Below are positions 30,020-51,863 of a stretch of 64,000 bases of DNA, one piece after another (the first letter of the stretch is position 1; every line of letters begins with the position of its first letter). Source of the DNA: a virus; the IMG/VR virus record IMGVR_UViG_3300026320_000001, positions 83,694 to 147,693 of that record, one strand, 5' to 3'. Below the pieces are notes generated by a model. It was not told the origin of the DNA, did not search any database, and saw only the letters and a list, made by a program, of their open reading frames with translations. The position numbers were made by a program, and so were the translations under genes.

Positions 30020-30088
30020 TTCCTAAAAATAAATTGACGGCAGGACATTTAGGAAATGTCTTTTCAGTTCTAGTTACCTAGCCGTCAA
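30020..30088 (-). ncRNA. structured 5' leader RNA (three-way junction plus pseudoknot), copy 1
   Basis: P1 TTGACGGC/GCCGTCAA, GAAAA junction, P3 GACAT/ATGTC with loop TTCCTAA complementary to downstream TTAGGAA. Confidence 0.55.
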
Positions 30089-30092
30089 AAAT

Positions 30093-30121
30093 ATTATACC
30101 ACAAAATCTTTATTTTGTCAA
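30093..30121 (-). promoter_or_regulatory. sigma70/sigmaA promoter for the endonuclease
   Basis: TTGACA-17-TATAAT with extended TG. Confidence 0.85.
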
Positions 30122-30127
30122 TATAAA

Positions 30128-31059
30128 TTATCCAATAGTTAAGAATGTTAATTCAAGAATTTTAGTAGCATCGAATGTTCCTGCAACTGCATAAATTGAA
30201 CCTTCTAGGGTTGTTGCCGCTGTCACTGTGCCAGCATCTACAGAACCATTAAAATCTTTTGATAAAACATTATTTGTGTTATCAATAATAGAAGGAAATC
30301 CAACTTTATTACCAACACCAATCGAAACTGTATCTGTCAATCTGTTACTTAATGACCTTATTACAAGGCGGATAGTATTTTCATGCTATCTCTGCAATTT
30401 TATATATTGTTGCAGTTCAGACTATATATTCACGCTTAAAATAAGCGGGATGAGTTCAGCATTTATATTACTATAAATGCCCCGTAGTCGTTAGAGGTTC
30501 TTTTGTTTTTTATATAAAAGTCTTCCTACGGTCTTGTCCATTTTTGGATTTTAACCGTTATACTCATCTTCTAATTAATTTTTATTTAATCCATATATTA
30601 CTATATGTTCAGGCAAAATTTACCTGCATGTGTTTCGGCGGGAAGGTCTACCGATGTAATTGTTGCGAAAGCTTTTACGCCCAAAACTTCAGTTGCTCCA
30701 TTCAAAGCAATTGTGTCAGTAATTGCTGTGCCAGCCATATTTGTTCCATTAACTGTGACGTTTCCAACATTACCAGACGCATTTCCCTTTATTGTTGCAA
30801 TTCTTGGAAAGTCTGGATTTGTAAATGTTCCAGTAGCATATCCAACTTGCGCTCCCGATGTCAACGCAATTGCCGCATGAACATAAGTTGCAGTTCCAAG
30901 TGCTGGAGTTGTTGAATATTTAAGTGTATTTACTGGTGAAAGAGTTCCAGCACCAGAAAGGGATGCTCCACCCATTATCAAAGTTCCCAACTGTGCCCTT
31001 TGAGATGCCGCATTCATATTATTTAAATCAGAAATTCTTTTAGCTGTAACAGTAGTCAT
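30128..31059 (-). CDS. probable virion protein, spliced (exons 31059-30622 and 30337-30128; 215 aa)
   Basis: Removing 30338-30621 joins ...LPAETHAG|TDTVSIG... in frame; Thr/Gly/Ala-rich, AGGAGG RBS. Confidence 0.8.
30338..30621 (-). ncRNA. group I intron, ORF-less (284 nt)
   Basis: P1 CAGGU/GCCUG with U.G at the 5' splice site; P7 elements AACGACUA and UAUAGUC; P3 GAUGAG/CUCAUC; terminal G; in-frame exon join. Confidence 0.9.
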
Positions 31060-31154
31060 ATTTTAAAACCTCCTAATTAAGTCATTATTTTGTCTAAATA
31101 TTTTTAGACGGTAAAGAAATAATATTATTTGACAAAAATAATATTCAAACCATT

Positions 31155-31664
31155 TTATTTCCAATAGCTATCTGCATTCAATTCATAAAATTTTTGAAAT
31201 GAATAAGATTTTTCATCTTTTATTTCTTCACCAAACCAATAAGGAATCATAAATTCATTCATTTCTTTTTCAGAATAAAATTCAACTTCTACAATTATAT
31301 CTCCATCTTCAAAATAGTCAATTGTAGCAGTTTGATAAATTCCTCCAGAACCAGTATTAACCGTTGGTAAAGTAATAAAAACTCTCTTTTTTTTAATTGG
31401 TATTTTTCCAATAAAATCAAATATTCTTATATATTGATTTTCTGTAATTTCAGGTTCAATTTCTTCTCTCACTCCATCATTTAAATTGTACTTTGTACAA
31501 TGAGTATAAACAGTATATTCTTCTCCAATCATTTTTCTTATTCTGTTAGAAGGATAAGATTCATCATTAGAGTTTGTATAAACATCTTCAATATCCACAT
31601 TTCCTGAAATACATTCAGCAGGAGGTAATTCTTTTAGCTTCCATCTTCTTTCTTTTTCTAACAT
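31155..31664 (-). CDS. CYTH-domain (triphosphate tunnel) protein
   Basis: EKERRW (ExExK/R), RIR, REEIE, IVEVEF, PYWFGEEI. Confidence 0.85.
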   Translation of the reverse strand: MLEKERRWKLKELPPAECISGNVDIEDVYTNSNDESYPSNRIRKMIGEEYTVYTHCTKYNLNDGVREEIEPEITENQYIRIFDFIGKIPIKKKRVFITLPTVNTGSGGIYQTATIDYFEDGDIIVEVEFYSEKEMNEFMIPYWFGEEIKDEKSYSFQKFYELNADSYWK

Positions 31665-31675
31665 AAATCCTCCTT

Positions 31676-32497
31676 TTATAAAACAAATGGGTTTGGATGT
31701 TCATTTGGTTGTAAAATTCTAATTCTCCATTTAGGAAGATAATTTTTATTATTTCCCACAGCAAAAATTGGAATTATTGAATTATTAATATATTGTGGAA
31801 ATGGGTCTGATTTATTTTCCCTATATTTACCAGTCCATTGACTTCCAGTTGGATTGCTAGAAGTTGATTCAAATAGATTTCCATTTTTATCAATCCATAT
31901 TTCAATTCTTACTGAATTTGATGGTCTATAAAACATATACCAATTATCTATTAAATTATATTGTTTATAATTTCCCAAACAATCAATAGCATCAAATTCC
32001 CAACAATCTTCTCCAGAAATTCTTTTTTCTCCAGTTATCTTTAATATAGTTCCACCACAAGCAGACGGTTGTAATCTCATATTTTCATTATCTAAATTTT
32101 TTTCATTCACATAATCAGCATTAGTATCACTACCATATCTATTTGTTATAAACCTATCCCCCTTCATTAATGAACTCCAAGAATATTTTGCTTGTTGTTC
32201 TGTAATGCTTGGAGATAATGACCAACATAAATTATGCATCCATAATTGAATATCTTCTGTCATGTCAACATAATCATCAATAATAAATCTGGCAACAGCA
32301 GGAAGACCCTTAATTCCTCTAGGTGCTTCATTTCTTGTTGGACGACTCACATGAAATCTGAGTTTTGAATTTGTAACAATATAATCAGGCCATTGTTGGT
32401 CATAGTCAAGATTTACAACTCCAAAAATATTATTGTTTTGATTATTTTCTATAATAGAATAATAACTTTCATTTTCATATTCAACTGTTATTTTCAT
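31676..32497 (-). CDS. hypothetical protein, lysis-cassette neighbour
   Basis: 273-aa ORF. Confidence 0.7.
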   Translation of the reverse strand: MKITVEYENESYYSIIENNQNNNIFGVVNLDYDQQWPDYIVTNSKLRFHVSRPTRNEAPRGIKGLPAVARFIIDDYVDMTEDIQLWMHNLCWSLSPSITEQQAKYSWSSLMKGDRFITNRYGSDTNADYVNEKNLDNENMRLQPSACGGTILKITGEKRISGEDCWEFDAIDCLGNYKQYNLIDNWYMFYRPSNSVRIEIWIDKNGNLFESTSSNPTGSQWTGKYRENKSDPFPQYINNSIIPIFAVGNNKNYLPKWRIRILQPNEHPNPFVL

Positions 32498-32499
32498 GA

Positions 32500-32823
32500 C
32501 TATATCTTTGTAAAATCAGTTCCAACATATATTCCCCCATCGTTTTCAACTGTAACTTTTTTTGGTTTATAAGGGTCACTTGTTGAAACAACAACTTCTT
32601 GAACATAGATAATATTTGTATATCCAAGAAATCTTGGAACATAATAATTATTTGGTAATTTAATAAAATCTATTGTATAATTTATATTATTAATTTTTTC
32701 TATATTTGTAGTTACAACGTCAGAACTAAAAGTATAACCAATTGGCAATTCTGTTTGAGTATTTGTTTCAAACATACTTGCTGTCAATCTTGGTTTTACG
32801 GGATTTATAATTTTATAATTCAT
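32500..32823 (-). CDS. hypothetical protein, lysis-cassette neighbour
   Basis: 107-aa ORF with AAGGA RBS. Confidence 0.65.
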   Translation of the reverse strand: MNYKIINPVKPRLTASMFETNTQTELPIGYTFSSDVVTTNIEKINNINYTIDFIKLPNNYYVPRFLGYTNIIYVQEVVVSTSDPYKPKKVTVENDGGIYVGTDFTKI

Positions 32824-32834
32824 ATAGTTCCTTT

Positions 32835-34322
32835 CTATCTTTTAGATATGTTAGTTGTTATATATTTATTATCACTATATTCAACTGTTATTTTTTTTAT
32901 ATTATTATTTGGAATTGTTCCAGGAGGAATTGTTGTTTTATTTTTTATTCTAAATCCTAAAATATTTGCAACTCTTCTTAATTTATATCCGGGATAACGA
33001 ATAACATCATCTTCACCAGATGGTTTTCCTATTATTTTCACAATACCATTATCTCGAATTGCCATAGTGGTACTACCACCACCATCATTCATATACGCCA
33101 TATAACAACCTAATTTTAACATTATTTTTGCAACATCTTGAAAATTTAAACCTTCTTTACTATAATAATCTCCACCATCCACAACAAAGAAAAATATTGT
33201 TTTTCCATCTTCTGAATATCCCCATGCTGTTCTTGCTCTAATATCATCTATTGCTTTATTAATTGGAACAATTATTCCATTAATAACCAACCTGTTAGGA
33301 TGAGAAATTGCATTCCATATTGACGATGGACGAACAAGAGATAATTCATTATTTTTACCTATGTAAACAGGTTCTTCTATTCCAAATTTTCCATATACAT
33401 TTCCTTCACTTGAAGCATATCCTGCAATCGTAGTTGAAATAAATCCATCTCCATTGATTGCAAAATCTATATTAAATGCATCTAAATAATCAGGAACATA
33501 TTTTCTTGCTTGAAGTTGAGGACTCACATATAGTTCAATTTTATCAGAATCAACTTTCATAAGATGATATGTTGCTTTTCCATAGGAAGTATAAGTTTCA
33601 TATTTCTTATAATTAATTCCATCATAATATTGTTTTTCTTCCAATAATAAATCTTCTGTTGGAATTGGATTTATGTTTATTTGAATATTAAATCTTTTTA
33701 TCAAAGATATTTCATCTCCATTATAATAATTCAAATCAACAGATGAACTTTCAACTCCATATAAACTTCCAATTCCTTTATCTGTATATTGCCAAAATAA
33801 CCAACCCTTATCTTTCCAAGTATCGGGAATTGCAGGTTGTGGATTATAAGACGCTATCCATAAAGGATATTGATTAAAATATATATTTTCGCTTGATGGA
33901 ACATTATCTTTCCAATAGTAGAAGTTCGTATAAATTCCAATTTCTTTATTTCCTACTAAAATTTTTAAATGTTCAAGAAAAATTTTCCAATTTTCCCATC
34001 CTTTGAATTGACCACCATAATCTTTTTCAACATCTATAAACATTGGTAGTTCACCAAAATCACCGTCAAAAACACTCATATATAATTCAGCTTGTGTTTT
34101 TGGGTCAATTCTATCATCATAAAACCAATAACTTCCACGAGGAAGATTTGCTCTTTTAGACATTGACCAGTTATATAGAAAATCAGGGTCTTTCCATATA
34201 TTTTGTCCAGCCCTTACAATTGTAAATTTAGCATTTTGTGACATTATTGAAAAATCTATTTGTCTTACTGTTTCATCATTATCATTATATAAATCAACAT
34301 CAGTCCCTATAAGATAAGTCAT
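32835..34322 (-). CDS. endolysin: GH25 muramidase plus phosphodiester-glycosidase (NAGPA-like) domain
   Basis: GTDV, IDVE, GIYT, LWIASY, FWQYT, VDLN (GH25); AINGDGF, ARTAWG, VVDG, NDGGGST (NAGPA-like). Confidence 0.85.
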   Translation of the reverse strand: MTYLIGTDVDLYNDNDETVRQIDFSIMSQNAKFTIVRAGQNIWKDPDFLYNWSMSKRANLPRGSYWFYDDRIDPKTQAELYMSVFDGDFGELPMFIDVEKDYGGQFKGWENWKIFLEHLKILVGNKEIGIYTNFYYWKDNVPSSENIYFNQYPLWIASYNPQPAIPDTWKDKGWLFWQYTDKGIGSLYGVESSSVDLNYYNGDEISLIKRFNIQININPIPTEDLLLEEKQYYDGINYKKYETYTSYGKATYHLMKVDSDKIELYVSPQLQARKYVPDYLDAFNIDFAINGDGFISTTIAGYASSEGNVYGKFGIEEPVYIGKNNELSLVRPSSIWNAISHPNRLVINGIIVPINKAIDDIRARTAWGYSEDGKTIFFFVVDGGDYYSKEGLNFQDVAKIMLKLGCYMAYMNDGGGSTTMAIRDNGIVKIIGKPSGEDDVIRYPGYKLRRVANILGFRIKNKTTIPPGTIPNNNIKKITVEYSDNKYITTNISKR

Positions 34323-34335
34323 AATTCTCCTATCT

Positions 34336-34698
34336 TTATATCAAATATCCAAATACATCAATATCAACTGTACAATCAGATGTTGTTCCAGTAGCTATTG
34401 ATATTTCAAAACTATCATTTGAAATTAAATTTTGAAATTTTGTATTATTTGTATCTAATATAATAAAATCTGTTTCTGGAGTTGTCAAAGAAGATAAATC
34501 TACAGATTGTTTCCAATTTGTAAAATTATATTCAGTTCCACCAGCCATAGAAGCAGAAGGATTTCTAATAATAACATGTGTTATATATCCGGTTTTTCCA
34601 GAAGGAACAATATATAAACTATTATTTCCGACTGTTTTCATATCAACACCTTCAGATGTTGATAATTTTGTCATTGCTATTGTATTTAAATTTGCCAT
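34336..34698 (-). CDS. putative virion protein
   Basis: YIVPSGKT motif, beta-rich, GGAGG RBS. Confidence 0.6.
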   Translation of the reverse strand: MANLNTIAMTKLSTSEGVDMKTVGNNSLYIVPSGKTGYITHVIIRNPSASMAGGTEYNFTNWKQSVDLSSLTTPETDFIILDTNNTKFQNLISNDSFEISIATGTTSDCTVDIDVFGYLI

Positions 34699-34708
34699 AT
34701 TTATCCTC

Positions 34709-34894
34709 CTAAAAGTTAAAAACTATTTGTCCATCATAAGTTACGACATCTCCATCATAAATTACAGCGGAGGATAAATTAAAATTAAAATCAAATGGTT
34801 GTCCAGAACTAATCAAAACATTATATTGATTTTCATTTAAAGTAATAATTACATCTAAATTATCAGTAGGAGTAATAATTGGATTTATTGTCAT
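34709..34894 (-). CDS. hypothetical protein
   Basis: 61-aa ORF with AGGAG RBS. Confidence 0.6.
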   Translation of the reverse strand: MTINPIITPTDNLDVIITLNENQYNVLISSGQPFDFNFNLSSAVIYDGDVVTYDGQIVFNF

Positions 34895-34895
34895 A

Positions 34896-35246
34896 TTAAA
34901 CTCCTAGAATATTAAAATTTCCAGCCAAAATAGTTCTTGTATAAACTGTTATTGGAGTAATTTCTTGTTTTGGTGTATTCCAAACAAATTCCCATTTATA
35001 TTTTTCTGATGCAATAGGAAGAGATTCAATAGAATCTTTTGAAATAAAAAAATGTAATTTACCAATAGATAAATCGGTTTCAGTTATAACAATAGGTATT
35101 ATTGTCAAAGCTGTTCCAGAAGGAATAATGTTTGCTGTAAAATCATAATTTGTTAAATCAATACCAAAATCTGCATCAAAAGATAAATCATCTCCTAATT
35201 GCATTGTTAAATCAAGTTTTCCAGAATTTTGTTTTAAGTCAGTCAC
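34896..35246 (-). CDS. BppU-like small structural protein
   Basis: QLGD..F..DLTNY...RTILAGNF pattern; GGAGG RBS with GTG start. Confidence 0.55.
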   Translation of the reverse strand: MTDLKQNSGKLDLTMQLGDDLSFDADFGIDLTNYDFTANIIPSGTALTIIPIVITETDLSIGKLHFFISKDSIESLPIASEKYKWEFVWNTPKQEITPITVYTRTILAGNFNILGV

Positions 35247-35289
35247 ATTATTTTGCCTCCTTTATTTTATTGATAAAAGACATGTTTCA

Positions 35290-36054
35290 TTAACCTTTTG
35301 CTATTCCATGAACAAAACCAGTTCCAGCAGTTAAAGCAACCGTACCTTTTATTTGCACTTTATAGTATCTGTAAGGTGCTGGTGAAGCAACATAACTACT
35401 TGTTGCTAATGCAGAAACAGTAATTGGTGAACCAACAATAATAGCATCACTAAAATCAGTATCATTTGCCGCTACAACTTGCCAAGTAATAGAATTTGCA
35501 ATATCTGTATTTTGAATAGTATAAGCCATAACAGAATAATTTAATGCATCTATTCCTGAACCAACAACATCAGCATAACTATTTGTTGATAATTGAGCAA
35601 CAGGAGAAACTTCTAATGATGCATTGCTAAAACTTCCGCTAACTGAAACTACTTGATTACTAGGTAAAACAACTGGAAAACTTGCGGCGGATGTTTTTTG
35701 ACCCAATGATGTTGGCATTCTTTCAAAAGCCCATTTCACCAAACCTCTTAATTTTCCACTTATTGTACCGCTTGTATCGGTAATAACAGCAGAATCGGCA
35801 ACCGCCCCCTGAGTCGCATCTCCTCCGTTTGCAATTTCCACTTGTCCTATTGTTATAGTTCCGGTACTAACAGAAACAGGAAGACCATAAACAGACAGAG
35901 TTAAATCCTCTGCAATTATTCTCCAAGTTCCATCGTCTATCATGAATATTGTTCCACCAATTATACTTGCTCCAACGATTGTGTCATTATCAATATCCGA
36001 TGTTTCAGCTATATATGTGGGAACATTATTCTTTGAAATTAATTTTAATGTCAT
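35290..36054 (-). CDS. putative virion protein
   Basis: Thr/Ser/Gly-rich, LGQKTSAASFPVVLPSNQ fibre-type motif, GGAGG RBS. Confidence 0.6.
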   Translation of the reverse strand: MTLKLISKNNVPTYIAETSDIDNDTIVGASIIGGTIFMIDDGTWRIIAEDLTLSVYGLPVSVSTGTITIGQVEIANGGDATQGAVADSAVITDTSGTISGKLRGLVKWAFERMPTSLGQKTSAASFPVVLPSNQVVSVSGSFSNASLEVSPVAQLSTNSYADVVGSGIDALNYSVMAYTIQNTDIANSITWQVVAANDTDFSDAIIVGSPITVSALATSSYVASPAPYRYYKVQIKGTVALTAGTGFVHGIAKG

Positions 36055-36067
36055 ATTTTATTGCCTC

Positions 36068-37717
36068 CTATTTTCCAGCGTTTCCGCCATCTTCTCTTGT
36101 TTGAGAACCGCTATCAGTTAATTTAGATGTTGGTTTTGTTGGACGACCTTTTGTTTTAGTTGTTGAACTATCTCCTCCACTATCGGCTGGCATTTGCGCC
36201 CCCATAATAATTGGAGTTAATCCATCTACAAAATTATTTATTTTAGTCATCGCCAATTGACGTTCAAAATGATGAGGTAATTGACCCAATGCGGCCGCTA
36301 TTTTTTGCATATTTACTATACCATATGACATCATATCTTTTTGCATATTTAATCTTTCTTCTCTATTGGTAAAGAAATTTGTACCTTCAAGAAAAAATTT
36401 AAATTTTGTTTTTGTTTTTTTATTGATTTGATATTCCAAGAAATCAGAAAAATAAGGATAAATATGTTCCATCAAATATTCATCAACGTTTATTGATAAT
36501 TGAGATTCAACAGCATTATTTTTATCTAAAGTAAATATTAATCTAGAATTTACACCAGATGAAGCAGTAGTTGTTTTCAAAAATTCTTCATAAAATGGAG
36601 TTCCTAATGGAAAATCAATTGCTTTCATATCTTCAAGAGGAGCCGCACCTACTTTAATAGCTTCTGATAAGCCCGATTTTAATAAAGCAAGAAACTTTCC
36701 TAGCAAATCAGGACTAACAGCAACACTATCTTTAACAACTCCACCTTTAACATCTTTATTTAGCATTGGGATTTTTCCTAAAACTAATTTACTTGCACTT
36801 GCAATATAAGCATTTGTTTGTAGTTTACGAATAACTGGTTGTAAAACTACATCTGAAAACATAGGAGCAAGAAAAGGAATTCTTGTTGCTAATTCAGGAT
36901 TAAATTTGAAACACCAAAAACCATCTTTAGGACTTGTTTGAGTCCATAAAACCCATGAACCAGTTCTTCTATCAACTGGATTTGATGGATTATACTTTTT
37001 ATAAGATTCATTTTCTCCATAAACTCTATTATAAAGAGATTTAAAAATTCTAGGAAACATATTTATATCAACACCGGGTTGAATAAAATATAATATATCA
37101 AAATCAAAAAGCAATCCATAATCCCATCTACCAGTAATTAAACAATATTGATGATTTAATTCTTGAAGCGTATATCTATCACCTTCATCTCTCAATACCG
37201 AGAAAAATGCTTCTTGTCTAAGCATTTGTCTAATTGCTGTTCCAAATTCTTTTTTAATATCAAATTTATCTAAGAAATTGTTTACTATTTTGACATCTTT
37301 TTTATATTGTTTTAAAAATTTTGCATCTTCAAAATCAACATCATCTCCAATAGGAACATAAGTTAAATCAAAACTTAACATTCCAGAAAGATAATATAAA
37401 ACTCTTTTATATACCATTGATGTTAATTCAAAAAATTCAGAATATCCAACTAATTGTTCTTCATGTTCTTTTGGATTTAATAATGCCGCATCTATTTTAT
37501 CGGCTGTTGCCATTTGTGGTGACATTGAAACAGCTTGCAATTGTTGATTAACTAATTGAGGGGTATAAACATTTCCATATAAACTTGATGCAAATTGTAA
37601 AACATCCCAAACTTCTTTTTCTGACAATAAAATATCATCATTCTTAACTTTTATAATATCTGTTGATTTTTTTGATGATGATTTTCTAGTTATTTTTTTT
37701 GATTTTGTTCTTGCCAT
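36068..37717 (-). CDS. portal protein
   Basis: Directly after TerL; 549 aa; C-terminal GRP low-complexity tail. Confidence 0.75.
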   Translation of the reverse strand: MARTKSKKITRKSSSKKSTDIIKVKNDDILLSEKEVWDVLQFASSLYGNVYTPQLVNQQLQAVSMSPQMATADKIDAALLNPKEHEEQLVGYSEFFELTSMVYKRVLYYLSGMLSFDLTYVPIGDDVDFEDAKFLKQYKKDVKIVNNFLDKFDIKKEFGTAIRQMLRQEAFFSVLRDEGDRYTLQELNHQYCLITGRWDYGLLFDFDILYFIQPGVDINMFPRIFKSLYNRVYGENESYKKYNPSNPVDRRTGSWVLWTQTSPKDGFWCFKFNPELATRIPFLAPMFSDVVLQPVIRKLQTNAYIASASKLVLGKIPMLNKDVKGGVVKDSVAVSPDLLGKFLALLKSGLSEAIKVGAAPLEDMKAIDFPLGTPFYEEFLKTTTASSGVNSRLIFTLDKNNAVESQLSINVDEYLMEHIYPYFSDFLEYQINKKTKTKFKFFLEGTNFFTNREERLNMQKDMMSYGIVNMQKIAAALGQLPHHFERQLAMTKINNFVDGLTPIIMGAQMPADSGGDSSTTKTKGRPTKPTSKLTDSGSQTREDGGNAGK

Positions 37718-37731
37718 TTTTCTCCTCTCTG

Positions 37732-40555: not shown

Positions 40556-40563
40556 CAATATAG

Positions 40564-40635
40564 AGCTACCAGCAGAAATTGAATCCACAAGACCTAATTA
40601 CAAGTTAGGCATTTTACCAGTTAAATTATGGTAGC
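40564..40635 (-). tRNA. tRNA-Thr(UGU), weak T-stem
   Basis: GCTACCA/TGGTAGC acceptor; CCTAA-CTTGTAA-TTAGG; TTCAATT T-loop. Confidence 0.75.
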
Positions 40636-40646
40636 AAAAGAAAAAA

Positions 40647-41270
40647 TTATTTTTTTCTATTAGTTCTTCCATTTCCTTTATTTTTTGCTTTAAAAGTTGG
40701 AAGAAGAGCATCACAATTATTGCAAACATATCTAAGATTATTTGGAAAATTATTATTATGATTTCCGTCTATATGGTCAACAACAACGGGAATTTCAACA
40801 TCATTCCAATTTTCTAATTCGCAAATTGAACATTTTTTATCAATATTTATTTTTCTAAAAAATCTTCTTGCTTCTTCGTCGTTCATTTCTCCAGCATTAT
40901 ATCTAGGTAAATTTTTTAAAAAACTATCTTTTTGATTTTTTTCAGCTTGACATTTTGTATTACAATATTTTCTATCACTTCTTCCATTTATTTTTTTACC
41001 ACAATTTATACAAAAAGAATCTTTTCTTCTTTGAATATAAATTTTTATGTTTTTATTAGAATAACTTGCTCCACAACTTTGAGAACAATAAGTATTAACT
41101 CTTTTTTCATAATCAATTGGTTTATTGCATTCTAAACATAATTTTGGATTATTTTCGTATTTATTTTTTGCTTTTAATCCATTTTCAATTGTTAAATTTC
41201 TTCCAATTTTTAATTTATCATTTGCTCTTTTTCTGCTTGCTTTTGATTTATATCTTCCTGAACTTTTCAT
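40647..41270 (-). CDS. HNH endonuclease
   Basis: CSIC...VVDHIDGNHNNNFPNNLRYVCNNCD; N-terminal CxxC repeats. Confidence 0.88.
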   Translation of the reverse strand: MKSSGRYKSKASRKRANDKLKIGRNLTIENGLKAKNKYENNPKLCLECNKPIDYEKRVNTYCSQSCGASYSNKNIKIYIQRRKDSFCINCGKKINGRSDRKYCNTKCQAEKNQKDSFLKNLPRYNAGEMNDEEARRFFRKINIDKKCSICELENWNDVEIPVVVDHIDGNHNNNFPNNLRYVCNNCDALLPTFKAKNKGNGRTNRKK

Positions 41271-41285
41271 TTTTTATTTTCCCAT

Positions 41286-41368
41286 AATCCCACAAATATA
41301 ATTAAAAAGAAAGAAGCCGGGGATTCGGCTTTTCGATTGGTTCATGACTTCCAATCTATCTATCTTTT
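41286..41368 (-). ncRNA. structured 5' leader RNA, copy 2
   Basis: P2 GATTGG/CCAATC, GAAA junction, P3 AGCCG/CGGCT with loop AATCCC complementary to downstream GGGATT. Confidence 0.55.
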
Positions 41369-41370
41369 AG

Positions 41371-41441
41371 TTGCGCGAGCAAGAATCGAACTTGCGGCAA
41401 GAGGTTATGGGCCTCCTGTGTTACCACTACACCATCTCGCA
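41371..41441 (-). tRNA. tRNA with CAU anticodon (Met, or possibly Ile2)
   Basis: GTGT/ACAC D-stem; GGAGG-CCCATAA-CCTCT; GCAAG-TTCGATT-CTTGC; one acceptor mismatch. Confidence 0.75.
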
Positions 41442-41451
41442 TCGTAAAAAC

Positions 41452-41480
41452 ATGTTATCATATAAACATGATTTTGTCAA
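41452..41480 (-). promoter_or_regulatory. sigma70-type promoter for the tRNA/HNH cassette
   Basis: TTGACA-17-TAACAT with extended TG. Confidence 0.65.
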
Positions 41481-41486
41481 GAGGTT

Positions 41487-41510
41487 AAAAAGGACTCTAT
41501 AAAGAGTCCT
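41487..41510 (-). terminator. terminator, GACTCTATAAAGAGTC copy 2
   Basis: Hairpin followed by a U run on the minus strand. Confidence 0.65.
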
Positions 41511-41597
41511 CTCTAACAAATATATTTAATTTCCCCCATATTTATAATAAATAGAAACAATAAAAAATAAATTCTTAATAAATATAGAAAAATTTAT

Positions 41598-42506
41598 TTA
41601 ATTTTTTAATAAATTTTCTTTTTTAAATTTAGACAAAATATTTTTTCCATATCTATGTAAAGAACCGCATTTATCACATCTCAAAGATTCATACATTCCT
41701 TGACCTGAAGGATATTTTCCTTCATTTGTAAATTCTGTTCCCAAACAATTAGGACATTGTTTTGTTTCCAAATTATTGTGTCTGGCAAGATTTGGGTGAT
41801 TTGGAATGAATCCCCTAAGTTTGTAATACAAAGTTTCTGTAGCTATAACATCACCCACATTATAAGAAAGCATCGTATTCAGGGACTTGTCATCCCCATT
41901 AGAACAGGCTATCCATAAAGGAAAACCATCATTATCAATTTTATTTCTAATACCTAATTTTTTATTTATTTCAGTTAATTTATTTGAAGTAAATCTGAAA
42001 TTATTTCTAGCTACTTGTAAAGTATCTATGGTCAAATATTTTACTGGTTTTGCATACATCAAAAAATAATTATTTAAAGTTTTTCCATCATAATTAAGAA
42101 AATTATGTCCAATTATTATATCACATGAATTAACAAATTCAAATGCAGATAAAGAAATTCTTTCTGGATTTCTATTTATGGCTTCTTCTGATGTCAGAAT
42201 ATCTGAATATATTTTATTTGAATTCAAATATTTTCCAGCCCAACTAAGAAGACATAAATCTTCTATCATTTGTTCTCCACCTAGATATTGTTCTCTCATT
42301 CCCCATGAATAAAATTTAGCCGGTAAATTTTCTATATCCATCACGCCAATTTTAAAAGTATCAGTTTTTGCATTTACTTCAAAAAATTCTACAGGAATGG
42401 AATCCCATGTACCACAATCTTGACATTCTATTCTTTTTTTTGTTCTGGATTTATTAAATCCTCTTTGTTGAATATTTTCTGAACTACATTCTTTGCAGGT
42501 AATCAA
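41598..42506 (-). CDS. RNase H-like (DEDD) 3'-5' exonuclease with zinc fingers
   Basis: VMDIE, GHN..YD, IDTL, YNVGDV; CxxC pairs at both ends. Confidence 0.85.
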   Translation of the reverse strand: MITCKECSSENIQQRGFNKSRTKKRIECQDCGTWDSIPVEFFEVNAKTDTFKIGVMDIENLPAKFYSWGMREQYLGGEQMIEDLCLLSWAGKYLNSNKIYSDILTSEEAINRNPERISLSAFEFVNSCDIIIGHNFLNYDGKTLNNYFLMYAKPVKYLTIDTLQVARNNFRFTSNKLTEINKKLGIRNKIDNDGFPLWIACSNGDDKSLNTMLSYNVGDVIATETLYYKLRGFIPNHPNLARHNNLETKQCPNCLGTEFTNEGKYPSGQGMYESLRCDKCGSLHRYGKNILSKFKKENLLKN

Positions 42507-42572
42507 TTTTATCTCCTAATTTGGATATGTTATAAAAATACATATCCCCCTAATTACATTTCCCACATTTAG

Positions 42573-42644
42573 CTGGCACGACAGGACTTGAACCCATATG
42601 ACGATATTAACAGTATCGCATCTTGCCTATTAGATGACACGCCA
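42573..42644 (-). tRNA. tRNA-Asn(GUU)
   Basis: CGATA-CTGTTAA-TATCG arm; TTCAAGT T-loop; several G.U pairs. Confidence 0.75.
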
Positions 42645-42661
42645 AAATTTATTTATTACAG

Positions 42662-42736
42662 TCAGTGTAGCAGGATTTGAACCTGCGAACCTCGCCGCCC
42701 CAAACGGCTTGCTCTACCGAACTGAGCTACACACTG
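42662..42736 (-). tRNA. tRNA-Pro(UGG)
   Basis: CAGTGTG/TACACTG; GCTC/GAGC; TTTGGGG loop; GCAGG-TTCAAAT-CCTGC. Confidence 0.9.
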
Positions 42737-42759
42737 ATATTTATTTTTTTTCTTACAAG

Positions 42760-42831
42760 TCCAGTTATAGGAACTCGAATCCTAATTTGCAGGGTGAAAA
42801 CCTGCCGTCATGACCTTTAGACCATAACCGG
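42760..42831 (-). tRNA. tRNA-Glu(UUC)
   Basis: GCAGG-TTTTCAC-CCTGC; TAGGA-TTCGAGT-TCCTA. Confidence 0.8.
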
Positions 42832-42835
42832 ATAG

Positions 42836-42906
42836 AGCAGGTAAAGGGAATCAAACCCTTATCATCAGTTTGGAAAACTGAGGCACAATCAATATACCAT
42901 ACCCGC
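42836..42906 (-). tRNA. tRNA-Gly(UCC), degenerate D and T loops
   Basis: GCGGGTA/TACCTGC; TCAGT-TTTCCAA-ACTGA; AAGGG-TTTGATT-CCCTT. Confidence 0.72.
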
Positions 42907-42943: not shown

Positions 42944-42972
42944 ATTCTACCACATTATGTTATTTTTGTCAA
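42944..42972 (-). promoter_or_regulatory. sigma70-type promoter of the tRNA cluster
   Basis: TTGACA-17-TAGAAT with extended TG. Confidence 0.8.
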
Positions 42973-42978
42973 GGGATA

Positions 42979-43278: not shown

Positions 43279-43304
43279 TTTTCCTCCTATTTTTTAAAAC
43301 ATTA

Positions 43305-43619: not shown

Positions 43620-43657
43620 TTTTAAATCTCCTTAATATTAATAAAAAACCAATTTTA

Positions 43658-44313: not shown

Positions 44314-44349
44314 TTTTTACTCTTCTCCTACCAATATATAATGGGGTAC

Positions 44350-45132: not shown

Positions 45133-45805
45133 TTCTCCTTTTTGCTATCTTATATTTTATTTTATCATATTCAATACCAATAACATTTCTATTATTTTTT
45201 AATCCCCAAGAAATTGTTGTACCTGAACCAACAAATGGGTCAACTATTAAATCACCTTCATCGGTATATGGAAGTAAAATTCTATCCATAAGTTTTAAAG
45301 GTTTTTGCCATTCTACAAGTTTTCCGGTTTCAGGATTAGATATGCGTTCTTTGGCAACAGTGGTTAAACAAATATCGTCTATCCAAGCTGTTGCTTTTTT
45401 TGTTATTCTTCCCGAGGGATTCAATCTCTTAGAACCTGTGGTTGCTTTTGGGACTTGAATCCTGTCAGGATAAAATTTATAATTTGAACCTTTACAATAA
45501 ATGAGTATGTCATCATAGCATTGATGAAATTTATTAGATGGAGAACGCCCCCATTCGTTTTTCCATACAAGATGATTTAAAAATGTTGCGCCATTGATTT
45601 CATCTTCCATATAAACCCTGAATCTATGTTGACTATGAAAATCAGTCATGGCAATAAATATTCCGCCATCTTTTAACATGTCATAATAATGGTCTACCCA
45701 ATTAAAATCAAGGTTTTCATATATATAATCAGCAAAGATAATATCAACTGTTTTACTGTCTCTATTGAACTTCATATTGTCCATGTTCAAAAGTTTGTAA
45801 GTCAT
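45086..45805 (-). CDS. N4/N6 DNA methyltransferase (beta class), atypical motif IV
   Basis: QKP..LM, GDLIVDPFVGSGTT, IGIE; DYIY where DPPY is expected. Confidence 0.8.
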   Translation of the reverse strand: MTYKLLNMDNMKFNRDSKTVDIIFADYIYENLDFNWVDHYYDMLKDGGIFIAMTDFHSQHRFRVYMEDEINGATFLNHLVWKNEWGRSPSNKFHQCYDDILIYCKGSNYKFYPDRIQVPKATTGSKRLNPSGRITKKATAWIDDICLTTVAKERISNPETGKLVEWQKPLKLMDRILLPYTDEGDLIVDPFVGSGTTISWGLKNNRNVIGIEYDKIKYKIAKRRIDSIAKETPDTGRNK

Positions 45806-48800
45806 TTATTCTAAATTCCTTTTCTGAGTAATTTTTATTGAGAAAATTTATTTTTCCCATATGGTCTAAAATTGGAACAATTATTTTTCTATTGGAATTT
45901 GAGAGCATATTATTTATAATGCCCTCCCCGAACAGGCTCCAACACATTTCACTTTGAGAATTGTTTTGATAACAAACTCGAACAGCAAGATTTGCTAGTT
46001 CATTTATATTAGAGGATATATTAAACAAGGCTTTATTTTTTATTGCCGCCGCCATTTGTTCAAAGTTTTCATAATCGCTGGTTTCATAAGTTTTTCTTTT
46101 AAAGGATTTATATTCTTTATATAATTCTTCCATTTTTTCCAGTTTTATTTTATTTAATGAAATGTTTTTATCAATATATATATTAAAATCAAAATTAAAA
46201 TCTTTTTTCAATGAAATTTTATATTCTTTTATCTGATTTGAAATATATTTATAAACTTTATCCATAATTCCATTTGAATTAATTAAAAATGGAATATATT
46301 TAACATATTTTTCATATATTTCTTGTTCTTTTTTATGTCTTTTTTTAGATAATAAAACATCTAATCCATATCCAAATTTAGATTGACAATAATTTTCATA
46401 AATTTTATTATATTTTTTATATTCATTCATCTTGTGAGGGTAAAGATAGGTCATCCAAAGAGGACGTTTATCAATAATAATTTTATTTTGAATATTTATC
46501 TGTTCTATCTCTTGTAATGTCATGGAAGATTTCAACTTAATCCATCTCCCCCATTCCGGTATTTTCTTGGTAATGATTCCTTTTTGTTTATCTATTTCAT
46601 TACCTTGTAGTTTACGACATATTTTTAATCTTTCCATAATCATTTTATATTCAATAGAATCTTTTTCAAATAATGAAAGCATTGAATATAATGTTGTGGA
46701 TTGATTTGTTATAAGTCCAATCTTTGAGCCAAAAGAATTGATGTCTGATAAAGCCAGATTATTATTTTCTATAATTCCTTTTGGTGCAGATTTTTTTTCA
46801 TATGATATTGGCAATCCATTGGATGTGCCTTGAATAAAAACATCATTATCTGTTGTGAATAAAATATCGAAATCAAACTTTTATACCCTCGGTTTCCCGA
46901 TATTTTTAAGGGGAATAGACTATATCTTTATCCAATTCAAAATTGGATATTTGGCATTTCCTAAGAATGAGTTTCACATTCAAAGTACGGTTTTCACCTA
47001 GTCGTTACATGTTCTATTTTCATAGCTTCACACGGTATTTACTTTATTGATTTATTTTATTTTTATTCTCTTTATTGGCAAAAGAAAATAAAAACCCTCT
47101 ATATAAAACTTTATTATTTATCATTGTTGATAGTCTATTTTGAACACTTTTAACCTTTTTAGCTCTCACAATTTTTTTCTCAATCAAAAATTCAGCACAA
47201 TGTTTTACAGTTAAAAATGTCTCAATAATTATATTATCTTTTATCATATCTACTGGTTTTGCCTTAGGATTATTTTCATAAGTTATGTTTCTATGATTCT
47301 CAACCCATTGATTGTATTTTTCTTCGCTCATTCTTTCTTTTGGTGAGACACCAAATTGAGAATTTTTATCACCAGTAACAGAAACACTTCTATTTTTCAA
47401 CCATTGTTCATATATTTCTGGAGTCATTCTTTCTTTTGGAGATACTCCGTACATTGGATTATTTTCACCTCTTAAAACTGGAAAAAATTTTCCACCCGGA
47501 GAAATATTGCATTGTGCTTGATTTATTTCTTTATATTTTTCAATATAATAGATTTCTCTTTCATAAGCAACATCTTCATCCAAATTATCTTCTAGGATTT
47601 TATAATCACAATCATATTTATTATAATATCTCATAAAATATATATTTCTTCTATTTAATCTTTTTGCTCTTCTTCCAGAACCTTTTCCTATGTAAAAAAC
47701 ATTATCTGTTTCTTTATTGAACCAAGCATAAACATAATGTTTATTCAAACCCATATCCTATCTGCCAATATTTAAAATCAATTTTAGTATTCCACCGTTA
47801 GCAGTATTTCTACCACACCTTATATTTATAAGTTAACCAAATTTTTTATTATACATTACTGTATAAGGAGACAGTGTTGTTCATCTCCATCACCATAAAG
47901 CATCATGTCAATACCATGAATATTGAAAACAATACCGCTTTTCAAATGACCATACCATTTATCAATTTCATTATTTCTAATTAGATTGAGAGTATTCATT
48001 TCACTTTTCCAAGTAAGAGGACTTCTGCCCGATGCAACTTTGAAAATATTTTGTTCTATCCAATAAGAAGAATAGTGTTCATGTTCTTCTAACAATCCTT
48101 TTACTGGTAAATTAAAAGCATGTTGACATAAAGCAAATGGGTCACTAATACAAACTTGATAATTACCATTTATCAGTAATCCACCAGTATATGATTCTCT
48201 TATTTTCTTATTTAGTGTTCTAGAAATATATTGTTTAATAAAATAATCTTTTGATGAATTTTTATTTATAAGTAATGCTTTTATATAATTATTATCAATT
48301 GATTTCCATTGAGTTTCATCAAATTTTTCTATAGATGTTCCCATTAAATAAAGAAGTGATTTTTCTGGAGACTCGAAACTTATTTCTTTAAAGTATTGAA
48401 TAGTGTCATTGCACAAATATTCAATATCTTTATTATCAATATCTAAAACTTGAATATATTGATAAGATGACCAGAAATTTTTCTTTTCTTCTTTTGGGGT
48501 TTGACGAGAGATTCCCCAAGAAAGATTATTTGATTCACAATTTGTTTTATAGTTTTCTAAATTAGAATAAGAACTCCATAGCTTAAATTGAGAAGCTGTA
48601 AGTATGCAATCTATATCGTTCACATTATGTAAATTACCCCATACATCAATTATATTTTCCACATTATATTCTTTTGCAAATCCATGAATATCAAAAGATA
48701 CACATTGACCCTTTAAAAATGAACCTCGAATACAAAAAGAATTTGGAATATAATCTAATTCCATTTCACTTGACCATATCTTGGAAAATTCTAATGATAT

Positions 48801-49505
48801 AATTCCCTGCCCATCAAATATATTTTGAACAATCGGAATATTCCTTTTTTCAACATGGTCTATTTTGTTTTCATCTTCATAAACAAAATCAACATTTCTA
48901 TTTTTTGTTATTTCATAATCTGGAACTACAACAAATCTAGGTGCTGTAACTTTATGTGTTGCACTGGCATATAAAGCAAAATATGAATTAAACTTATTAA
49001 TATTTAATTCAATATCTTTATTTCTTCCATTGTCAAATATGTTTATTAATTTTTTACAAATAGACTCTTCTGCGAAAATAGATGTGTTACGCCTCGCATG
49101 TCCAGCCCCCGTAAGTAGACGAATATACTTCTTATTATTTATAAATAATCCTTGTTTAATTATTTGTTTGTAATGTGCCACATTATTAAAATGAATAGAT
49201 ATAATATCAGGAACAAATAATATATCTTCTAATTCTTTATTTATTTCAAAGATTCTATTTCTATTTATTTTAGAATCTTTTTCTTTTTTTAATGTTCTTT
49301 TTTCTTGCAACAATTCATCAATATGATATTGTGAAAATTCTATATCGTTTATTCTTCGATAAGTTCTCAATAGTTCTGAATCAGCCAGTGAAATAATTTC
49401 ATTATTTTTCAACGCTTCTTCATATGAAATTTGTATTGTATAGTTTGAATTTTTCAAACGCTCTGATGTAAATTTCATGATGGAAAACTGTTGAAGTTTT
49501 TTCAT
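45762..49505 (-). CDS. yonO: YonO-like single-chain two-barrel RNA polymerase, spliced (exons 49505-47883 and 46877-45762; 912 aa)
   Basis: FDGQG, FCIR..FLKG, ILTASQFKLW, SYQYIQ, SDP, RSP, spliced GD|FDFDILFTTDN, IGLITN, QGNEIDKQKGI. Confidence 0.88.
46878..47882 (-). mobile_element. group I intron (1005 nt) carrying a GIY-YIG endonuclease
   Basis: P1 GGAGAU/GUCUCC with U.G at the splice site; AACGACUA and AAGAUAUAGUC P7 elements; terminal G; in-frame exon join. Confidence 0.92.
47044..47754 (-). CDS. intron-encoded GIY-YIG homing endonuclease
   Basis: YVY...FYIGKGSGRR, CNISPGG, GENNPMYG, NUMOD1-like AKPV C-terminus. Confidence 0.88.
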   Translation of the reverse strand: MGLNKHYVYAWFNKETDNVFYIGKGSGRRAKRLNRRNIYFMRYYNKYDCDYKILEDNLDEDVAYEREIYYIEKYKEINQAQCNISPGGKFFPVLRGENNPMYGVSPKERMTPEIYEQWLKNRSVSVTGDKNSQFGVSPKERMSEEKYNQWVENHRNITYENNPKAKPVDMIKDNIIIETFLTVKHCAEFLIEKKIVRAKKVKSVQNRLSTMINNKVLYRGFLFSFANKENKNKINQ

Positions 49506-49510
49506 TATCT

Positions 49511-49699
49511 TTATTCATCAACTTCTTCGTCAACAAATTTTCTCTTGTCTTTCATTTTATTATAACTCATTTCATTCCAAATCACATTTCCATTTTTATC
49601 TTCTTTGTAATTTAAATTATTCCAATCTTCATAGCCAATTAAATCTTCATCTTCTTCATCAAAATCATCATCTATTTCATCAACATAATATTCATTCAT
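49511..49699 (-). CDS. small acidic protein
   Basis: 62 aa, GGAGGT RBS, directly upstream of the RNAP. Confidence 0.7.
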   Translation of the reverse strand: MNEYYVDEIDDDFDEEDEDLIGYEDWNNLNYKEDKNGNVIWNEMSYNKMKDKRKFVDEEVDE

Positions 49700-49710
49700 A
49701 TTAAAACCTC

Positions 49711-50136
49711 CTACCTTGCAAAGTCATAAATAAAGGGACAGTTATCAGATTTTCTTACTCCCCAATTAACAGGAGTAGGAATCCATAAATCATTCAAATT
49801 ATATTTTAGCATCATTTCAATTATTATCTCTCGTTCTCTATCGGTTCTTCTTCCACGTTTAAGTTCTTCCTTGATAACAGCAACCCACCCATTTTTACTA
49901 CTATCATAATTAACAATAACACCAAAATATTTTTTATCTTTTTTATTTATTTTTTTATATAATCGAATTTCTTGTCGTGATTGATTGCCTTCATCATTCA
50001 ATTTTACAATTATCTTTCCGTCTGTATAACAATGTCTTCCTGATTGAATGCCTCCCGTATGAGACATGTGTTTTGCTTTTTTGCCATTTATAAATACATT
50101 ATTAAAATCATCAACAATAATCTTTGGTTTTTTCAT
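49711..50136 (-). CDS. minimal protein-kinase-like protein
   Basis: GRHCY..IIVK..QS.QE..Y, DL....NWG, IYDFA. Confidence 0.6.
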   Translation of the reverse strand: MKKPKIIVDDFNNVFINGKKAKHMSHTGGIQSGRHCYTDGKIIVKLNDEGNQSRQEIRLYKKINKKDKKYFGVIVNYDSSKNGWVAVIKEELKRGRRTDREREIIIEMMLKYNLNDLWIPTPVNWGVRKSDNCPFIYDFAR

Positions 50137-50609
50137 AATTTATCCATATTGTTTTTTATAATCTTATCAACCATTCCCATTTTTATAATGTGAACAAACA
50201 AAGGAACACTTCCTCTTTTTGCTATATCAATCATATCTTTAGTTCCTTTTGAATTGTTTTGCCAAAAAGCAATTAAAATTGGATTATCAAATCTTGCATA
50301 GTCGAACATTTTCATATTCCTATTTCTTCCGGCAAGAGCATTATAATCTCCAAAAAAATCATTATGCTTTACAAATACGGGAGGTTCAAAATTATGCCAA
50401 TCAGCTTCAAATATTTTTTTCTTCAACTGGTATTCATCGGCGAACTTATTCCCCAATTTATCTGTTCCATATGCACCACCGTGAATTATTTCAAAATCAT
50501 TTGGATTGATTTCTTTTTTATATTGTATCTCTGAAAATATATTCAATACATTTGTTTTGAAAATATGATAATTTTCAAACTCCCTAGAACCAGATATAAT
50601 AATTCTCAT
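50133..50609 (-). CDS. SLOG / YspA-like (DUF2493) protein
   Basis: IIISGSREF, HGGAYGTD, AGRNRN..M, AFW..SKGTKDMI. Confidence 0.85.
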   Translation of the reverse strand: MRIIISGSREFENYHIFKTNVLNIFSEIQYKKEINPNDFEIIHGGAYGTDKLGNKFADEYQLKKKIFEADWHNFEPPVFVKHNDFFGDYNALAGRNRNMKMFDYARFDNPILIAFWQNNSKGTKDMIDIAKRGSVPLFVHIIKMGMVDKIIKNNMDKL

Positions 50610-50612
50610 ATT

Positions 50613-51206
50613 TTAATCCCATAAATCTAAATAATATTCTGAAAATTTTTGTAAACCTTTTTGTAATCTTTTATCAAGTTGTCTATGTTCTTCAATAGTC
50701 TTCCAACCATGTAATTCATCCATTTGTTTACGTGCTTTAAATCCATCAATCATTATGTCTAATTCTTGATTCCATAATTTGATTGCATCTTTTTCAATCT
50801 TCTTATCTTCATCATTATATGGAGAATTAAGCATATAATCTTTTGGAAAACAAAGTTGTGGAATTCCATGACCTGATTTTTTATATTCCGGTAAAACTTC
50901 CAACATAATATTTGCTAACCAATAATCAATTCCCCATATAACTCTATCATCCCATCCTCTAAAAACTCTCTGCCAAGCAAACTTGACTTCATAATAAGAA
51001 TCTGATATAATTCGTGATATAATCAATTGAGGTGCAGAATAGATAACATGATGAGCGCATGGAAAAGGCCACCACCAATCTCTTGTAATTTCATCAAACC
51101 AATAATGAACAGGATGGTCTTTTTTCCATTCTGCTTCCATATCATCAAACATTGTTCCTATAGAATTATAGTTTTTACTTATTTTAGATGTATCAAATTC
51201 TTCCAT
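50613..51206 (-). CDS. hypothetical phage protein
   Basis: AWQRVFRGWDD...GLQKFSEYYLDLWD. Confidence 0.75.
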   Translation of the reverse strand: MEEFDTSKISKNYNSIGTMFDDMEAEWKKDHPVHYWFDEITRDWWWPFPCAHHVIYSAPQLIISRIISDSYYEVKFAWQRVFRGWDDRVIWGIDYWLANIMLEVLPEYKKSGHGIPQLCFPKDYMLNSPYNDEDKKIEKDAIKLWNQELDIMIDGFKARKQMDELHGWKTIEEHRQLDKRLQKGLQKFSEYYLDLWD

Positions 51207-51214
51207 TTATTCTC

Positions 51215-51649
51215 CTAGACACCGTAATCCCAAATTTTTATATTATTGTTTATATCCAAACCAAAATTATCATCATTATAAGCACAATCACATAGAGAAT
51301 ACTTTCTTTCAATATTTCTTACTTGTTTATAATCTTTGTGATATAAAACATCTTTTTTACTTATATGTCTTGTAGCAATCATGCGTTGTGAAACCCAATA
51401 TATTTTTTTATTATCTTCTAATATATAACCATAATCCAGAGGTTCAACAAAATATTTTTTTTCTTCATCTTTCATCATATTCCACAATTGTATTTCTTGA
51501 TAAGATTGACCACATTCATCCCAATCCATTTTTATGATAATATCACCATATCTATATAAATCCCTGCTATATCCACAAGCAGGATAAAAACTATTTACCT
51601 TATCGTTATTTATGTAAATATACGCCCTACTGACTACACGAATTCTCAT
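51215..51649 (-). CDS. minimal protein-kinase-like protein (paralog of 49711..50136)
   Basis: GYSRDLY..IIIK..QS.QE..W, D....NFG, IWDYG. Confidence 0.6.
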   Translation of the reverse strand: MRIRVVSRAYIYINNDKVNSFYPACGYSRDLYRYGDIIIKMDWDECGQSYQEIQLWNMMKDEEKKYFVEPLDYGYILEDNKKIYWVSQRMIATRHISKKDVLYHKDYKQVRNIERKYSLCDCAYNDDNFGLDINNNIKIWDYGV

Positions 51650-51677
51650 AGATAAATCCTCATATTTTTATTCAAAT

Positions 51678-51745
51678 ATTCTACCATAAAACCTTAAAAA
51701 TGTCAAGGGCTACATATTGACAGAATATAGGAAATGTGGTAGAAT
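51678..51745. promoter_or_regulatory. back-to-back divergent sigma70-type promoters
   Basis: Minus strand TTGACA-17-TAGAAT (51706-51678); plus strand TTGACA-17-TAGAAT (51717-51745). Confidence 0.85.
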
Positions 51746-51750
51746 AAATT

Positions 51751-51863
51751 TGTTTAAAATTATAGAGATAGGTTCAATTTGGTTGCAACTAAATTGTTTC
51801 TGATAAATGTCCCTTTCCATTTCTCTATAATCTTAAACATTATCATATAAATAAAAAAAGGGA
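51751..51863 (+). ncRNA. structured 5' leader RNA, copy 3
   Basis: P1 ATTATAGAG/CTCTATAAT, P2 CAATTTGGT/ACTAAATTG, GATAA junction, P3 AAATG/CATTT with loop TCCCTTT complementary to downstream AAAGGGA. Confidence 0.55.

Follow-up and report, generated by a model that had tools for sequence, protein, structure and literature searches.

Introduction

RNA structures that mask the ribosome-binding site have been described for the homing endonuclease genes I-TevI, I-TevII and I-TevIII of phage T4 and mobE of phage Aeh1, and are implicated for T4 segB (PMC3014915). They hold down translation of a selfish nuclease in cis and are sometimes combined with promoters of the gene's own and upstream terminators (PMC3014915). 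Here we analyse a 64,000-nucleotide (nt) stretch of viral DNA, positions 83,694 to 147,693 of IMG/VR record IMGVR_UViG_3300026320_000001 (hereafter the window), in which three endonuclease genes, h1, h2 and h3, are each preceded by an RNA leader (copies 1, 2 and 3, respectively). Whereas the T4 and Aeh1 structures are simple, local and lineage-specific hairpins at the Shine-Dalgarno (SD) sequence or the AUG, the leaders described here have a conserved three-way junction, a remote anti-SD loop and a decoy. We find that they are one conserved structured-RNA family and, judged from sequence and predicted fold, that they are a diverged, AT-rich, phage-borne branch of int-alpA (Rfam RF02996) and not a new RNA family.

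Two other kinds of RNA invite comparison. The SAM-II and preQ1-II riboswitches are SD-sequestering pseudoknots; like them, the leaders place an aptamer-like domain upstream of a start codon, with long-range pairing to SD-like purines, but no ligand is suggested for the leaders and they have no sequence or model match to such riboswitches in Rfam. The HEARO and omega RNAs that accompany IscB and TnpB serve as guides; they are long and have a single protein family as their binding partner. The leaders resemble these in being structured RNAs encoded beside a mobile-element nuclease gene, and differ from them in being only 55-75 nt long, in preceding unrelated proteins and in pairing with their own leader.

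The nearest catalogued relative, int-alpA, is an orphan motif that we attribute to the 2017 survey by Weinberg et al.; it is not discussed in the main text of that paper (PMC5737381). The RF02996 consensus consists of P1, UAG, P2, CGAAAA, P3 with an aaCCuUua loop, CU, P1', a U-rich tail and AAGG, and the motif is found with the integrase and alpA genes of integrative elements.

Results and Discussion

Three leaders with one layout

The three leaders share an order of elements: P1, UA-G, P2, GA(A/U)AA, P3, P1' and then a purine run (site 1) complementary to the P3 loop. A preliminary description of the window, made from the sequence alone, had proposed this layout; each of the elements that it listed is present where it placed them, and the P2 of copy 1 is indeed weak. 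The features are as follows.

Copy 1 (upstream of h1)
30034-30088 (-): three-way junction, composed of P1, UAG, a weak P2, GAAAA, P3, CU and P1'
30081-30088 and 30034-30041 (-): P1, UUGACGGC/GCCGUCAA
30066-30080 (-): weak P2, the CUAG-GUAA-CUAG region
30061-30065 (-): junction GAAAA
30044-30060 (-): P3, GACAU-UUCCUAA-AUGUC, then CU
30049-30055 (-): P3 loop UUCCUAA (anti-SD); 8-nt complement to site 1 including flanking bases, 5-nt complement to the SD
30020-30027 (-): decoy site 1, UUUAGGAA
30003-30020 (-): small hairpin AUCAU-UAUAGGAG-AUGAU, seen in the minimum free energy (MFE) fold, with the SD (30008-30013) in its loop
30093-30121 (-): promoter TTGACA-17-TGgTATAAT, 12/12 consensus, extended -10

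Copy 2 (upstream of h2)
41304-41368 (-): three-way junction; P3 and the U-run also fit an intrinsic terminator
41359-41368 and within 41304-41315 (-): P1, AAAAGAUAGA/UCUUUCUUUU, with one U.U mismatch, then UA
41335-41356 (-): P2, GAUUGG-AAGUCAUGAA-CCAAUC, then GAAAA
41342-41347 (-): P2 loop palindrome UCAUGA
41316-41329 (-): P3, GCCG-AAUCCC-CGGC
41320-41325 (-): P3 loop AAUCCC
41286-41291 (-): site 1, GGGAUU, a 6-nt complement to the loop
41277-41283 (-): SD-like GGGAAAA, matching the loop over 4 nt
41452-41480 (-): promoter TTGACA-17-TGaTAACAT, 10/12, upstream of tRNA-Met

Copy 3 (upstream of h3)
51759-51831 (+): three-way junction with a long P2
51759-51768 and 51823-51831 (+): P1, then UA
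51771-51801 (+): P2, then GAUAA
51782-51789 (+): P2 palindrome GUUGCAAC
51805-51822 (+): P3, AAAUG-UCCCUUUC-CAUUU
51810-51817 (+): P3 loop UCCCUUUC
51857-51863 (+): site 1, AAAGGGA, a 7-nt complement to the loop
51869-51876 (+): SD, GAGAGGAG
51717-51745 (+): promoter TTGACA-17-TGgTAGAAT, read from the sequence

Calculated duplex energies for copies 1, 2 and 3 are -7.7, -8.3 and -10.0 kcal/mol for the loop with site 1, and -7.3, -6.0 and -7.9 kcal/mol for the loop with the SD. Given its perfect promoter, the copy 1 transcript is predicted to start at about 30086, in the first bases of P1. The expectation that each gene has a host-type promoter in front of it holds for copies 1 and 3, where the promoter adjoins the leader; copy 2, in contrast, has no adjoining promoter of its own, its leader following tRNA-Met directly and the promoter lying upstream of that tRNA.

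Short upstream reading frames occur in two of the copies. Copy 2 has a mini-ORF (open reading frame), AUG GGA AAA UAA, between site 1 and the main start (41274-41285 (-)), and copy 3 has AUG AGA GGA GUG AAA UGA (51864-51884 (+)), whose stop codon overlaps the AUG of h3. Site 1-driven upstream mini-ORFs were dropped as a general feature, being confined to copies 2 and 3. Two other readings of the junction were also set aside. A tRNA-like fold is suggested by the UA-G after P1 and by the 7-nt loops of some copies, but arm lengths vary and ARAGORN calls no tRNA at the leaders. A hammerhead or another small self-cleaving ribozyme does not fit either, the order and lengths of the junction strands being unsuited to the CUGAUGA...GAAA...UH core; Rfam searches of the leaders returned no match to small self-cleaving ribozymes or to known riboswitches.

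Homologous leaders and covariance models

The window alone does not establish the leaders as more than chance; the homologs do. Within the window, the MFE z-scores of copies 1, 2 and 3 (-1.5, -0.2 and -1.1) indicate folds that are not unusual. A lenient search for complements between loop and downstream sequence finds at least 6 nt in 30 of 50 leaders on the contig (60%) and at least 7 nt in 15 of 50, and a loose descriptor of the architecture gives 13 matches, mostly AT-rich junk. A search of phage records brought up no near match, neither 60 related genomes nor viral contigs (the latter by exact pattern) gave any match, and a related-locus search of viral contigs for h3 and h2 returned nothing.

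Metagenome contigs were then scanned with an alignment of h1/h3 homologs, which returned 80 loci (numbered with the prefix L). Many of the leaders inspected upstream of them have the same RNA layout with different stem sequences. The loop and the purine run change together, as in UCCUAG/CUAGGA (L017), UCCCUA/UAGGGA (L022), UCUCCUC/GAGGAGA (L057) and CUCCUAA/UUAGGAG (L037). The comparison of copy 1 with L017 is instructive: they agree in promoter, junction bases and linker and are nearly identical in the SD region, while P3 carries compensatory changes (GACAU/AUGUC versus GGCGU/ACGCU). Consensus promoters abut P1 in copy 1 and in L017, L067, L080 and L089. The L037 contig holds a second leader (L037:3356-3421), and the ORF downstream of it is unrelated to h1/h3 and without a Pfam match.

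Since junction alignments made with MAFFT were structurally inconsistent, the covariance model was seeded from two co-linear sequences and then iterated. Model R1 was built from two co-linear metagenomic copies, R2 from 12 metagenomic copies and R3 from 17 non-window copies. R2, which holds no window sequence, was searched against 407 kb (the window, the rest of its contig and 85 loci). It scored copy 2 at 39.1 bits (E=8e-7), copy 3 at 22.6 bits (E=0.018) and copy 1 at 21.3 bits (E=0.041), and with default filters these are its three best matches on the whole phage contig. With R3, copy 2 scored 39.4 bits and copy 1 27.8 bits (E=0.0016); copy 3, the weakest of the three leaders by model score, reached 20.1 bits (E=0.012 over 20 kb, filters off). 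One result tells against reading these scores too confidently: with filters off, R3 also gives 25.7 bits to an ordinary intrinsic terminator at 59543-59606 (-), a false positive, so that its specificity is limited, bits in the twenties are not decisive in AT-rich DNA, and copies 1 and 3 rest on their combined features and not on bits alone. The sequence of this terminator is AAAUAGCCUCCC-CGUU-GGGAGGCUAUUUUUUU. The recovery of all three copies by models built from homologs nevertheless bears out their family relationship.

Covariation of the helices, the P3 loop and the P2 palindromes

The helices covary. In the model alignment of 19 sequences, 95.7% of helix cells hold standard pairs, as against 65.5% after shuffling; 18 of the 21 helix pairs show changes on both sides, and none of 500 shuffles reaches the observed values. 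When the 3' partners are slid by 1-3 columns, pairing falls to 42-52%. Because the structure guided the fitting of the alignment and related sequences are included, the pair counts lean in its favour, which takes something from the case; the margin is still large.

For the P3 loop, the longest perfect complement to a member's own downstream leader was compared with that to the leaders of the other members, over 25 members. The average is 6.72 nt for cognate and 4.62 nt for non-cognate combinations, and none of 20,000 permutations reaches the observed sum, which puts the covariation of loop and purine run, first read from three copies, on firm ground. The loop has two targets: site 1, placed just past the U-rich linker that follows P1', and the SD region. 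Both are present in 17 of the 25 members, and each, tested on its own, covaries with the loop, a result that also stands for the 18 members recovered by the model only (0/20,000 each). As predicted pairings with a single loop, these two covarying partners are mutually exclusive. The small hairpin in or beside the SD seen in copy 1 recurs in L017, L067 and canonical int-alpA loci, although it is suggestive only, because such hairpins appear in 56% of shuffles.

The most conserved positions are the junction bases (GAUAG ... GAUAAG). In P2, it is self-complementarity that is kept while the sequence changes. A perfect palindrome of at least 6 nt lies in the central 12 nt of 17 of 26 P2 hairpins, against 4.4 expected from shuffles, a count that is inflated by related sequences. 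Eight different hexamers occur: UAAUUA, UAGCUA, UUCGAA, UCAUGA, UCUAGA, GAUAUC, UUGCAA and CGUACG. The short-P2 forms of canonical int-alpA show no clear palindromes, the automated extraction of P2 being unreliable there. Retained self-complementarity is what a kissing-loop dimer would require, and the P2 palindrome may be a site of such dimerisation. A frequent arrangement is a 9-nt loop of two purines, the palindrome and one purine; palindromic P2 loops are seen at 41342-41347 and 51782-51789 of the window and in L088, L048, L037, L057, L067, L001, L029, L087, L016, L043 and others.

Relation to int-alpA

At Rfam gathering thresholds the window yields tRNAs only, with no match to RF02996, whose cut-off is 35.8 bits. 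In E-value mode L017, the closest homolog, matches RF02996 from end to end at 28.1 bits, and copy 2 is the best RF02996 match in the 3.38-Mb assembly that includes the window (23.8 bits, E=0.016). Copy 1 gave no match at E≤10 in a 301-nt search, and copy 3 is absent from the matches of the whole-assembly search. Conversely, R2 finds four canonical int-alpA copies at the right position, the best with 25.8 bits (E=0.004).

In the order of its junction, copy 1 has every element of RF02996, including CU; copy 2 has them without J3/1, and copy 3 has GAUAA and no J3/1. The loop and purine-run feature is present in all three, with complements of 8, 6 and 7 nt, and copy 3 lacks the U-rich tail. The shared points are thus the order of elements, the junction bases, a loop complementary to downstream purines and sub-threshold matches in both directions. 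The clade of the window leaders differs from int-alpA in being AT-rich, in its longer P2, often with a palindromic loop, in the frequent absence of J3/1 and in having GAUAA as often as GAAAA. The genetic setting differs as well: instead of the integrase and alpA genes of integrative elements, the window copies precede phage homing endonuclease genes, so that a promoter-leader-homing endonuclease order in a large phage stands against the integrase-leader-unknown ORF order of proteobacterial islands.

A search of genome contigs with the int-alpA core pattern returned at least 120 loci, mostly from Betaproteobacteria. Canonical loci are those numbered L103-L182 (for example L145, L162, L181, L116, L149 and L107). 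They have site 1 and a second complementary site at the SD, which often lies in a hairpin loop such as GCGC-UUGAAGGA-GCGC, and both sites covary with the loop (permutations reaching the observed value: 0/20,000 for site 1 and 301/20,000 for the SD). In most of them the start codon lies +37 to +44 nt past the junction. A tyrosine integrase ORF ends just upstream of the motif in 6 of the 7 loci checked, and the ORFs behind it are diverse, 150-400 amino acids long and without a significant Pfam family.

Having the design and junction bases of RF02996, scores below its cut-off and another genetic setting, the window leaders are best placed as a diverged int-alpA branch. The novelty that the preliminary description had seen in them is therefore lost, the Rfam family having the same architecture while the window copies fall below its threshold. 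What is gained is a wider range for int-alpA: beyond proteobacterial integrase islands it now takes in promoter-leader-nuclease cassettes of AT-rich phages, which the current Rfam model misses. In addition, the anti-SD loop, its two covarying partners and the fixed distance to the start codon offer a concrete model of translational control for what has been a catalogued orphan motif.

A proposed model of translational control and its alternatives

The leader most likely controls translation initiation of the downstream, potentially harmful gene in cis, thereby limiting the nuclease; we hold this reading with moderate confidence. In copies 1 and 3 the nuclease transcript would start with this RNA or close to it; in copy 2 the RNA begins right after the tRNA. 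The three-way junction would display the pyrimidine-rich P3 loop as an anti-SD sequence. This loop could pair with the purine decoy, site 1, to form the pseudoknot of the preliminary description, or alternatively with the gene's own SD region, often in or beside a small hairpin, and the balance between the two pairings would set the accessibility of the ribosome-binding site. Control of this kind fits the phage homing endonuclease genes that hide their ribosome-binding sites in RNA structure (PMC3014915). What is observed here is the fold with its covariation, a pair of complementary sites and a kinship to int-alpA; from these we infer an effect on translation, its direction and that something shifts the balance between the pairings. 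The earlier suggestion of a cis-regulatory pseudoknot that limits translation is thus retained in part: its pairing covaries and the anatomy suits it, the anti-SD loop matching the real SD as well, while the limiting of translation keeps the standing of a model. Were the model confirmed, the leader would serve as a portable 'governor' module, keeping the expression of selfish or toxic genes at a level that their carriers tolerate, and as a compact part for tuning translation.

Several observations weigh against this account. In copies 2 and 3 the loop matches the true SD weakly, over 4-5 pairs, and masking of the SD may thus be absent from some copies. Conservation of the junction bases exceeds what SD masking would need, a hint that a factor or ligand is bound there. 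A fourth h1/h3 paralog on the same contig, outside the window (C4:129887-131008 (+)), has no leader RNA in front of it; its ATG overlaps the stop codon of the preceding gene. Likewise, no convincing leader was found upstream of the homologs in five cultured phages (Clostridioides phage ES-S-0173-01, Sporosarcina phage Lietuvens, Lactococcus phages P1048 and WRP3, and Staphylococcus phage Stau2). Hence, the RNA is not obligatory for these genes. Finally, the U-rich run after P1', the fit of copy 2 to a terminator and the small-RNA type of the Rfam entry keep transcription termination or release of a small RNA a live alternative.

According to this last alternative, the junction and U-run would end upstream transcription (of a tRNA, an integrase or a structural gene) or attenuate the cassette's own promoter, and the released small RNA, with its anti-SD loop, could act in trans. 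We regard it as possible, though distinctly on the unlikely side. Most members, like the Rfam consensus, have a U-rich tract behind P1', a terminator scan calls copy 2 P3 with CUUUCUUUUU, canonical copies come right after integrase ORFs as copy 2 comes right after a tRNA, and RF02996 is typed 'Gene; sRNA'. However, copy 3 has no U-run after P1', the run amounts to only 3-4 U in the GC-rich canonical copies, and termination there would fall before both of the targets that covary with the loop, site 1 and the SD; the start codon, too, follows at a fixed distance.

A less probable proposal, and in our view a doubtful one, is that the leader is a sensor, in which a ligand or protein bound by the junction, or dimerisation through the P2 loop, shifts the P3 loop between decoy and SD. 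One loop with two mutually exclusive partners is a hallmark of switches, and the strong conservation of the junction and the number and variety of P2 palindromes point the same way. Yet the downstream genes share no pathway that would point to a ligand, Rfam holds no riboswitch or ribozyme that matches, and the palindrome statistic counts relatives, with the short-P2 canonical forms unclear. In a specific form of this proposal, which we consider slightly more doubtful again, the leader would be a concentration-sensing switch: dimerisation through the candidate element, a P2 loop of about 9 nt that contains a 6-nt palindrome, would move the anti-SD loop from decoy to SD. If true, this would give protein-free negative feedback to genes of mobile elements, such as homing endonucleases and island cargo.

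That the nuclease uses the RNA as a partner or guide, as with an omega RNA, is very improbable. The preliminary description had raised the idea of an RNA partner, and the RNA does adjoin nuclease genes in the window. The idea fails, since the genes behind this RNA encode unrelated proteins (PD-(D/E)XK-type and HNH nucleases, the ORF at L037, and diverse non-nuclease ORFs behind integrases) and one paralogous nuclease does without it; moreover, the variable loop matches its own leader and not a foreign target. A chance resemblance of AT-rich leaders and terminators, for which the unremarkable z-scores, the frequent 6-nt matches under the lenient rule and the 25.7-bit terminator speak, is the least credible explanation of all and is refuted at the family level by the compensatory changes among homologs and by the decisive loop/target permutation tests, independently built models also placing the three copies at the top of the contig under default filters.

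To return to translational control in cis, the genes that the leaders would govern and their surroundings are described below.

The phage contig and the nuclease genes

29080-30000 (-): h1, free-standing homing-endonuclease-like gene, 306 amino acids; Pfam DUF4379, phrog_559 and phrog_9084
40647-41270 (-): h2, HNH endonuclease gene, 207 amino acids, within a tRNA cluster; phrog_1271, phrog_14736 and phrog_10822, with a weak Pfam HNH_3 match
51881-52810 (+): h3, paralog of h1, 309 amino acids; its last 8 nt are shared with the start of a helicase gene
40563-42906 (-): cluster of six tRNAs (Thr, Met, Asn, Pro, Glu, Gly)
41370-41441 (-): tRNA-Met(CAT), directly 5' of copy 2

The products of h1 and h3 are 41% identical across their C-terminal halves. 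Both have DUF4379 zinc ribbons and a C-terminal restriction-endonuclease-like domain of the Vsr/DUF2726 type, and in PHROGs they are annotated as homing or HNH endonucleases. Within the tRNA cluster, h2 and its leader form an insertion that separates tRNA-Met from tRNA-Thr. The helicase (52803-54143) is about 39% identical to proteins of Clostridioides phage-plasmids and of SPbeta-like Bacillus phages.

The window corresponds to G000:C4:32445-96444. Contig C4 is 147.6 kb long with 28.5% GC, as against about 42% for the 3.38-Mb assembly, which points to a separate large phage or phage-like replicon. We conclude that C4 is a separate phage-like replicon or a co-assembled phage, and that its host need not be the assembled bacterium. 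The DNA of the window is found in soil-metagenome runs, with no RNA run among those listed. Contigs from four such runs equal the window exactly, with no variants or informative joints at the leaders. Between the window and the genome assembly there is a single mismatch over 64,000 bases, at position 54809, where the window has A and the assembly has C.

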